Sequence record: PP925823.1
Length of the DNA stretch: 37,205 nucleotides
Strand: one strand, 5' to 3'
From: Escherichia phage LMessi
Under the pieces are notes generated by a model, which ran no database searches, had not been told where the DNA came from, and saw only the letters and a list, made by a program, of their open reading frames with translations. Both the position numbers and the translations under genes were made by a program. This document shows positions 8,569-9,453 of this stretch, piece after piece. Each line of letters starts with the position of its first letter. Position 1 is the stretch's first letter.

Positions 8569-9000
8569 ATGAATACTCAAATCACCGTAGCCAAAACCAT
8601 CGGCAAAAGAATATTAAATCAAAGATCTTCGCTTCGACTGTCTCAGGATTTTTTGGCTGATCATCTTGGTTTAACAACCGAAACCATTAACAACTGGGAA
8701 ACGGAGAAAACTGTTCCGTTTGCTGACCAGTTAATCCAATTGGCTAACATTCTTCATTCTGATGTTCTGTGGCTCATTTCAGGAAACGAGCAGTGTGGTG
8801 AATTTACAGAGCCAACAAGCATTATAACTTCCAATCAACTTAATTCATGGTCTGCGGATATTGGCAATTGCAGAATGGCTTTATCCAACGCTATGGATTG
8901 TATGCCTCCTGAATTGTCGGCTATCGGTACTCTAACTATCGTTTATGAAAAATTAGATGACTTGCAAGAAACCATCTGTAAGCAAGCAGACAAGATTTAA
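8569..9000 (+). CDS. HTH_XRE-family DNA-binding protein with a C-terminal domain of unknown function
   Basis: 143 aa; N-terminal HTH (LRLSQDFLADHLGLTTETINNWE); GGAG RBS 8 nt upstream; AT-rich composition relative to flanking phage genes. Confidence 0.6.
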   Translation: MNTQITVAKTIGKRILNQRSSLRLSQDFLADHLGLTTETINNWETEKTVPFADQLIQLANILHSDVLWLISGNEQCGEFTEPTSIITSNQLNSWSADIGNCRMALSNAMDCMPPELSAIGTLTIVYEKLDDLQETICKQADKI

Positions 9001-9060
9001 AATTAATTAACATTGTTTAATTAACACCTTTCTTGGTGGGGCCAAACTCACCCTGAGGAA

Positions 9061-9453
9061 ATGAAAATGCAAAATGCTATCGCGATTAATCAGCCAATAA
9101 AAACTCCTCGAATGCTGTTCGGTTCAGACAATATTAACGACTTTGGTAACCGCGTTCAGAGCTGCCGGATGGAAGGTGATTCAATGCAACCGACCATCGA
9201 ACCATGTGAGGTTGTGGCGTTCGTTGATTGCGGTGGCCGTGCGCTCACTCCTGGCATTTACGTTTATACGATGGAGGTTTTCGGCCGCCCATGCCTGTTC
9301 ATTAAGAGAATAGAGCCATTAATTTGTGGTTCGTTGAAAATTATTTCTGACAACCATCATTACGAAACATTCACCCTCAACACTGATGAATTGAAAGATA
9401 TCAAAATTCACGGTCGGGTAGTCGCTTCTTTGGCGGTGAGGCGCTTCGTATGA
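9061..9453 (+). CDS. stand-alone S24 (LexA/UmuD-like) peptidase-domain protein
   Basis: 130 aa containing GDSMQPTI (S24 catalytic Ser motif) and a downstream Lys (FIKRIE); no HTH domain; own GAGGAA RBS; separated from the upstream HTH gene by 60 nt containing several stop codons. Confidence 0.55.
   Translation: MKMQNAIAINQPIKTPRMLFGSDNINDFGNRVQSCRMEGDSMQPTIEPCEVVAFVDCGGRALTPGIYVYTMEVFGRPCLFIKRIEPLICGSLKIISDNHHYETFTLNTDELKDIKIHGRVVASLAVRRFV

Follow-up and report, generated by a model that had tools for sequence, protein, structure and literature searches.

Two genes downstream of the cI repressor

In Escherichia phage LMessi (PP925823.1; the 37,205-nucleotide stretch analysed is called the window here), two adjacent genes lie beyond the gene for a cI-type repressor. 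The first, ORF1 (8569..9000, + strand), encodes a 143-aa protein with an XRE-type helix-turn-helix (HTH) domain and a C-terminal module, and the second, ORF2 (9067..9453, + strand), encodes a stand-alone S24 catalytic core of 128 aa. S24 autopeptidases such as LexA, cI and UmuD are textbook damage sensors of bacteria and temperate phages, and are seen as self-cleaving two-part proteins. A first-pass annotation of the window had read the two genes as one such repressor split into two polypeptides and lying in the slot that rexAB occupies in lambda. As it had stated, each gene has its own ribosome-binding site (GGAG, 8 nt before the ATG of ORF1; GAGGA before ORF2), and the 66-nt gap between them holds stop codons in all frames. 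It had also called both genes AT-rich, which is true of ORF1 (39% GC) and of the intergenic region (32%) but only mildly so of ORF2 (45.5%), when set against 52% for the whole window.

The cI gene (7668..8366, + strand) encodes 232 aa with HTH_3 and Peptidase_S24 domains (Pfam, E=4.3e-10 and E=2.2e-16; PHROG 4, E=1.8e-55), and alignment placed in it a VSA-G cleavage motif, GDSM and KR. A terminator scan found the intrinsic terminator that closes its transcript (8387..8418, + strand), a 9-bp stem (8387-8408, five G-C pairs) with a T-run; phages of another immunity type have a different terminator at this position. Between this terminator and ORF1, in a spacer of 32% GC, are OL-type operators that overlap a PL-type promoter (8494..8537, + strand). 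The window has six copies of the half-site AATAACTT, where chance would give 1.0: four lie between cro and cI, in the OR-type operator region (7561..7655), together with further repeats, one is at 8516-8523 and one is elsewhere. Furthermore, the two operator regions share a perfect 14-nt inverted match (7613-7626 with 8514-8527) and a 30-nt inverted match of 80% (7604-7633 with 8494-8523). These matches and the terminator scan confirm the first-pass placement of the genes downstream of the cI terminator and behind an OL-like operator. The hexamers of the candidate promoter (-35 TTGCAA at 8509-8514, a 17-nt spacer, and -10 TAAAGT at 8532-8537) were read by eye; they have 8 of 12 consensus matches, below the scan threshold, and the mosaic joint described next is their sole backing. 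A sigma-70 consensus scan of 7300-9700 returned zero promoters, and PR and PRM were likewise missed.

The exact ORF1 protein sits behind at least two unrelated cI/operator types. When the spacers of phages with type-1 and type-2 cI genes are aligned (loci L005-L010), they are wholly different up to the -10 hexamer and identical from TAAAGT onward. This mosaic joint, at 8530-8537, coincides exactly with the hexamer, and a common 5' untranslated region and first gene lie behind it. As judged from the alignment, an immunity module (cI, terminator and operators) has here been joined to a common early transcript, and ORF1 and ORF2 are, by position, the first genes of a predicted cI-repressed early-left operon, on the N/ral side. 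Because the genes lie past the cI terminator and past an operator-overlapped promoter, they are at the early-left head and not in a rexAB-type slot. The 434 hex and lambda rexAB genes are also accessory genes adjoining cI, but in the lysogen they share the PRM transcript of cI, and they lie upstream of OL, whereas ORF1 and ORF2 are found beyond OL/PL. Both ORFs should be silent in the lysogen.

In lambdoid phages the leading genes of the early-left operon occupy mosaic hot spots, where exclusion, defence or anti-defence cargo is often found, and the first-pass annotation had suggested a role of this kind. The pair, or the S24 protein alone, would then act against other phages or against host defences. 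Such a role would suit the hot-spot position, the swapping of the first gene among at least four forms, and the weak matches of ORF1, over the HTH part only, to the RmrA and CapH models. However, these HTH matches are generic, neither the S24 protein nor any of the five downstream ORFs tested was matched by PADLOC, and genes repressed in a lysogen could not protect that lysogen. The PADLOC result is absence of evidence and not exclusion, but the defence role is left without support and we consider it improbable.

ORF2 as a stand-alone S24 core

The identification of ORF2 as a stand-alone S24 protein with GDSM and a candidate catalytic lysine, made in the first-pass annotation by inspection, was borne out by profile searches, fold matches and conservation of the dyad. 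ORF2 matches Pfam Peptidase_S24 (PF00717) over aa 31-121 (E=5.4e-7; 29.8 bits against a cut-off of 23.3) and PHROG 6201 from end to end (E=9.5e-39), and shares 33% identity with the C-terminal domain of the cI protein of the same phage. In the AF2 model the beta core is confident from residue 30 onward (pLDDT ~70-90), and the model superposes on the C-terminal domains of LexA, 186 CI and viral CI. In Foldseek, LexA C-terminal domains were matched with a probability of 1.0 (TM ~0.5) and viral CI C-terminal domains with a query-normalised TM of 0.6-0.65; sequence searches of the PDB, with the ORF2 protein and with the family profile, gave chance matches only. Translation almost certainly starts at the ATG at 9067 (128 aa), and not at the upstream ATG at 9061, because GAGGA stands 7 nt before the former, nearly all full-length homologues have 128-129 aa, and the first ATG is missing in several relatives.

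The predicted catalytic dyad consists of Ser39 in GDSM (codon 9181-9183) and Lys80 in IKR (codon 9304-9306), which align with the dyad of the repressors. Across 107 homologues the serine is retained in 106 and the lysine in 103. The active-site and substrate-binding strand (residues 35-48) is the most constrained part of the protein, with 11 of its 14 columns at least 90% conserved compared with 37 of 114 elsewhere (p=0.0012), and the median dN/dS of 0.09 indicates strong purifying selection on the gene.

No HTH or other DNA-binding domain was found in ORF2, and in alignment with its nearest full-length relatives (repressor types 1, 2, 10, 11 and 12) its N-terminus falls ~15 residues past the (A/C)-G cleavage site. 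A search for a self-cleavage site, that is an A/C-G strand ~35-45 residues N-terminal of the serine, found none; F18-G19 is too near the serine and has the wrong P1 residue. The suggestion of an SOS-type, damage-sensing autopeptidase is therefore not supported, the cleavage-site strand being missing. Judged by alignment, ORF2 is the equivalent of the C-terminal fragment that remains after cleavage, in the way that UmuD' relates to UmuD, and the protein is, as far as its sequence can tell, a repressor-derived S24 core without a substrate loop of its own. It resembles the C-terminal domains of LexA, lambda cI and P22 C2 in its beta-fold, in the serine of GDSM, in the lysine of K-R and in an 'SDN..Y' motif. 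It differs from these proteins, however, in having no DNA-binding domain, no linker and no Ala/Cys-Gly strand, and in being encoded by a separate gene in the lytic early-left operon instead of the immunity locus.

Phages do encode pre-truncated S24 cores, as HumD shows. UmuD' and P1 HumD are like ORF2 in being stand-alone cores of ~115-130 aa that correspond to a post-cleavage fragment, and the precedent of HumD in phage P1 is said to come from McLenigan et al. in 1999. By analogy, ORF2 might partner host UmuC (Pol V), or otherwise modulate translesion synthesis or recombination, as a core born without the N-terminal segment and cleavage site; UmuD is indeed among its fold matches (8gmt, target-normalised TM-score 0.66). 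However, ORF2 belongs to the repressor lineage and does not have a UmuD-family sequence. It gave no match at E<=0.1 to the NCBIfam UmuD model (NF007621, PRK10276), whereas the cI protein of the phage does match it (E=6.8e-7), and its nearest relatives are phage repressors and not UmuD, MucA or RumA. Furthermore, no polymerase partner is evident, there being no Y-family polymerase among the called genes of the sampled loci. A HumD-like role thus seems rather improbable to us.

ORF1 and its C-terminal module

ORF1 is an HTH_XRE protein with an extra C-terminal domain, as had been proposed. Over aa 12-75 it exceeds the Pfam cut-offs of HTH_19 (32.0 against 30.2 bits), HTH_3 (26.9 against 23) and Phage_CI_repr (29.5 against 22), and a linker separates this HTH region from a 57-aa C-module (aa 87-143; window 8827-8997), so that ~65 residues in all follow the HTH. 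Profiles from Pfam, PHROG and NCBIfam match ORF1 over the HTH part alone, leaving the C-module without a family match. The AF2 model has helices at 3-71, 88-111 and 117-142, so that the C-module is predicted to be a helical hairpin (aa 88-142), and Foldseek returned HTH domains only, for example those of C.BclI, 434 Cro and P22 C2. The N-terminal HTH also resembles that of DicA (E=5e-13), RstR and the Phage_CI_repr family. However, the match to the DicA model NF007257 reached 49 bits against a cut-off of 101 and covered only profile positions 3-71 of 135, which does not make ORF1 a member of that family. ORF1 differs from DicA and RstR, moreover, in that its C-terminal helical module is a separate mobile unit and in that it is a lytic-operon gene, identical across immunity types.

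The mobility of the C-module is apparent from its distribution: it is found on the HTH domain, on two other N-termini (in proteins of 130-136 aa, PHROG 27579/6882), or alone in proteins of 72-78 aa (variants in loci L016-L022, L027, L028, L040 and L089). The coexistence of HTH-C and C-only proteins recalls pairs of the SinR/SinI type, in which a repressor is matched by a look-alike antagonist, although this is an analogy only. As a gene, ORF1 is well kept: its median dN/dS is 0.04, which indicates strong purifying selection, its homologues all have 143-145 aa (n=37), and the exact protein is present on at least 1000 contigs. We read ORF1 as, most probably, an early regulator in its own right. 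Since it does not have the recognition helix of cI, and since the protein is identical across immunity types, it would bind a DNA target other than the immunity operators. Cys76-Gly77 in the linker was considered as a cleavage site of the UmuD type and rejected, the homologues having YG or FN at this position.

Between ORF1 and the leader of ORF2 there are two direct repeats of TTAATTAACA (9003-9012 and 9017-9026), 14 nt apart, each of which contains the palindrome TTAATTAA. As a candidate operator for the HTH protein they were set aside; similar AT-rich repeats occur in phages that have no HTH gene or that have other first genes.

Independence of the two genes

An exhaustive HMMER search recovered a compact family of stand-alone S24 proteins, followed by a gap in score and then mostly by HTH+S24 repressors of 210-300 aa with 35-45% identity. 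Among 144 S24-only homologues none is fused to an HTH domain, and nearly all full-length members have 128-129 aa, down to 57% identity; likewise none of the 37 HTH homologues is an HTH-S24 fusion. Few members of the family are in phage records (four phages, in five records, among 50,697 searched). Database entries call them 'CI-like repressor', 'S24 family peptidase' or 'helix-turn-helix transcriptional regulator', labels that are homology-based only. No study of an S24-only family was found in the literature searched; the mEpimmI paper deals with another group of phages.

The gene that immediately precedes the S24 gene varies. In 104 related loci it is the HTH-C gene in 44, a gene of a 97-aa family in ~53, a C-module-only gene (72-78 aa) in 4, and another N-terminus joined to the C-module in 2. 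The 97-aa family is not a homologue of the C-module (hhalign probability 0.7%). The identity of the S24 protein does not follow this change of partner, since the median identity to the window copy is 90.6% with HTH-C and with 97-aa partners alike. The S24 copy in phage Fostie, for example, has 96% identity despite an unrelated gene upstream, and nucleotide homology begins at ~9018 of the window, between ORF1 and ORF2. Conversely, C-module proteins are also found in loci without an S24 gene, where the leader hairpin joins directly to the 35-codon ORF that otherwise follows ORF2. Because of this direct join, the S24 gene is regarded as a clean presence/absence cassette. When loci are anchored on the downstream 73-aa gene, the S24 gene is kept in 71 of 77 (~92%), present as remnants in 3 and absent from 3.

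These data bear directly on the split-repressor interpretation, according to which DNA binding falls to the HTH protein, while the S24 protein, docked on the C-module, contributes dimerisation or inactivation that depends on RecA; the pair would then form a second switch, for immunity or for the SOS response. The genes are adjacent, co-oriented and co-transcribed, their domains are complementary, the HTH-C gene is followed by the S24 gene in every sampled locus, and some full-length repressors (for example P0197 and P0198) resemble both halves with ~37-39% identity. However, more than half of the S24-only genes follow a non-HTH gene, with four types of upstream gene in all and no covariation with the partner, and the C-module is found without the S24 gene. 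The co-occurrence of 26 in 26 is not significant, because the background retention of the S24 gene is already 92%. In addition, the HTH protein has a helical C-terminal domain of its own, the S24 protein lacks a cleavage site, and the sole C-G of the HTH linker is not conserved. Finally, the genes could not maintain the immunity of a lysogen, because their operon would be repressed by cI. Taken together, the neighbour, fusion and selection data argue against an obligate two-polypeptide repressor, and we now give this interpretation little probability.

Pairs in which an XRE HTH gene adjoins a protease gene are known from ImmR-ImmA of ICEBs1, from DdrO-IrrE (PMC6868357) and from CapH-CapP, and in this respect the LMessi pair is similar. 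However, the proteases of those pairs are COG2856/M78 metallopeptidases and the pairs are strictly co-inherited, whereas ORF2 is of the S24 type and is more often partnered by non-HTH genes than by HTH genes. Profiles from Pfam, NCBIfam and PADLOC gave no metallopeptidase match for ORF2.

A further possibility was that the two ORFs are pseudogene fragments, the decaying remnant of a second repressor gene. Their domain content does resemble the two ends of a repressor, and a frameshifted S24 copy exists in one relative, the phage CharmingMan. However, decay does not agree with the dN/dS values of 0.04 (HTH) and 0.09 (S24), which indicate that neither ORF is a decaying fragment, or with the constant gene length across more than 100 homologues, the conserved ribosome-binding site and leader, and the wide occurrence of the exact HTH protein. 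From selection and length data this reading can be taken as already refuted, and it retains hardly any probability. The first-pass annotation had named findings that would count against its own proposal; of these, homologues as a single fused ORF and a recent nonsense or frameshift change in this copy were not seen, and the S24 fold is real.

The S24-only gene co-occurs with at least 14 cI types. Its product has significant similarity to the C-terminal domain of the co-resident cI protein in 5 types only (28-33% identity), and none to those of lambda-like or P22-like repressors. A heterodimer with the cognate cI was therefore rejected as a general mechanism. A target that is itself conserved, either host-side or generic, would best account for a protein that is ~90% conserved among phages of at least 14 unrelated immunity types.

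Proposed role of the S24 core

We propose that ORF1 and ORF2 are independent early genes and that ORF2 supplies an S24 core which, having no substrate of its own, acts in trans; we put the probability of this reading at roughly one half. ORF1 is one allele of a swappable first gene of the early-left operon. As the operon would be repressed by cI, synthesis of the S24 protein would have to await infection or the onset of induction. The protein may then act, as an enzyme or at least by way of its active-site cleft, on a protein of the repressor/SOS circuit, most probably by cleaving or engaging a LexA/cI-type protein or another host SOS component. The effect would be to reinforce lytic commitment or to reshape the SOS state of the cell.

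Action in trans would not be foreign to this fold. The C-terminal fragments of LexA and lambda cI reportedly cleave in trans, a result ascribed to Kim & Little in 1993, and minimal Ser-Lys peptidases, SodX among them, act on separate substrates. SodX, the S24/S26-like protease that matures nickel superoxide dismutase, is like ORF2 a small stand-alone Ser-Lys peptidase, and it cuts another protein. However, ORF2 matches the SodX profile TIGR02754 only weakly (E=0.0038; 17.7 bits against a cut-off of 63.25), and its context is unrelated, with no sodN gene. For UmuD itself, trans cleavage within dimers has been established and a RecA-UmuD structure is available (PMC9926225).

In its strongest form, the idea of an enzyme acting in trans would make the S24 core a RecA-independent 'repressor-killer' protease, produced from the first derepressed transcript and cleaving LexA-family proteins: the cI of the phage itself, the repressors of co-resident prophages, or host LexA. 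If true, a graded SOS signal would be turned into irreversible lytic commitment, or rival prophages and the SOS regulon would be cross-induced, and ORF2 would be the first natural S24 enzyme with a different polypeptide as its dedicated substrate. We regard this specific form as doubtful.

Alternatively, the S24 core could be a non-catalytic decoy that binds the groove of the RecA* filament or the C-terminal domains of repressors, and so damps or sharpens the RecA-dependent cleavage of cI or LexA or, as a dominant-negative C-terminal domain, poisons repressor oligomerisation. In fold and size the protein corresponds to the C-terminal fragment that a cleaved repressor leaves behind, the same phage encodes a LexA-controlled, DinI-like binder of RecA*, and conservation across immunity types would suit a host target such as RecA. 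Phage accessory modulators of repressor autocleavage are also known, 434 Hex being one that modulates RecA-dependent repressor cleavage (PMC3564112). However, the active-site strand and the dyad are the best-conserved part of the protein and a pure binder would not need them, and a heterodimer with the cognate cI is unlikely in view of the dissimilarity of most co-resident cI C-terminal domains. Docking on RecA is also problematic, since LexA, UmuD and lambda cI dock in the RecA groove by an acidic patch just before the catalytic lysine (PMC9926225), and this patch is not conserved in ORF2. A decoy seems to us possible, though unlikely.

Several points also weigh against the trans-acting core that we favour. 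The fragments of LexA and cI cut in trans slowly and with substrate specificity, which is awkward for one enzyme that would serve 14 immunity types. At the positions aligned with the acidic RecA-docking patch (cf. PMC9926225) ORF2 has G-R-x-C, so that RecA-assisted action is doubtful. The S24-only family is shallow, with a mean column identity of 78%, and conservation of the dyad is for this reason only moderate evidence of catalysis. The gene is also dispensable, because it is absent or degraded in 6 of 77 relatives and is frameshifted in CharmingMan, a plaque-forming Escherichia phage isolate in which it is annotated as two 'CI-like repressor' coding sequences (L002, 5398-5792), so that laboratory lytic growth does not require it. 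The early-left assignment depends in part on a promoter that was read by eye and missed by the consensus scan, and read-through expression in the lysogen is possible. Finally, in each of the samples the HTH-C gene had the S24 gene behind it without exception (26/26, 44/44 and 8/8), and a functional link between ORF1 and ORF2 is possible in this allele combination.

A truncated S24 domain as such is no surprise. What calls for explanation is a selected, substrate-less and near-universal copy in a lytic operon: the active site is under strong purifying selection in a core that has neither a DNA-binding domain nor a cleavage site, and this core is retained, irrespective of immunity type, by ~92% of the prophages in a widespread Enterobacteriaceae lineage. 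If SOS proteins are cleaved or sequestered in trans, the lysis-lysogeny switch would gain a new layer, and so would the cross-talk between prophages and between prophage and host, in clinically important hosts such as Enterobacter, Citrobacter, Escherichia and related genera. If, on the other hand, the S24 core is inert or merely structural, ORF2 would be a routine accessory gene. The logic of annotation is also corrected, in that ORF2 would be neither a second repressor nor defence cargo expressed in the lysogen.

Leader, micro-gene and other features of the window

The S24 gene is preceded by a conserved leader (9021..9066, + strand), recognised by locus comparison and by a minimum free energy fold. 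It can form a CACC/GGTG hairpin or an alternative GGTGGG/CTCACC hairpin, and its CCTT is able to pair with the Shine-Dalgarno GAGG. The leader is kept regardless of the upstream gene, with the exact pattern in 94 of 110 loci, and one compensatory pair change was seen (CGCC/GGCG in L025). It may be a translational control or another RNA element; Rfam returned nothing credible in 7000-12000 and no match for the leader.

Immediately after ORF2 is a conserved 35-codon micro-gene (9450..9557, + strand), the ATG of which overlaps the stop codon of the S24 gene (ATGA). Its consensus is MTFI.DK.AYRTACLYAACGYEVIARLYLKKAYG, it had no PHROG match, and it is intact in 100 of the 104 related loci and found also in phages without the S24 gene. 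We conclude that it probably encodes a real micro-protein.

The phage, one of Enterobacter/Escherichia, is of the HK97-like lambdoid type, and its virion genes have ~93% nucleotide identity with those of phages ECP1, HK542 and mEp390; the hosts of its relatives are Enterobacter, Citrobacter, Kluyvera, Salmonella and E. coli. A Q antiterminator is encoded in the window. Divergent from cI is the gene for a cro-like lytic repressor of 75 aa (7331..7558, - strand) with an HTH of the YdaS/P22_Cro type (Pfam YdaS_toxin, E=6.7e-19; P22_Cro, E=1.6e-7; PHROG 35).

Just past the integrase gene, at 12866-12890, is GGTTCAACTCCCGCCAGCTCCACCA, which we take to resemble the 3' end of tmRNA (ssrA) and which would presumably be the core of the attachment site; ARAGORN called no complete gene at this position. 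Further on there are two perfect LexA boxes (13102-13117 and 13126-13141), the only perfect ones in the window; none is near ORF1 or ORF2. Directly behind the boxes lies the DinI-like gene (13161-13427, + strand; 88 aa; PF06183, E=2.5e-22), which is, by homology and position, a predicted SOS-controlled modulator of RecA filaments adjoining the phage attachment region. Within the early-left operon, a 73-aa ORF (10358-10579, + strand) has a ParE-like toxin domain (PF24732, E=2.3e-20) and overlaps the end of the preceding 84-aa ORF (PHROG 340).

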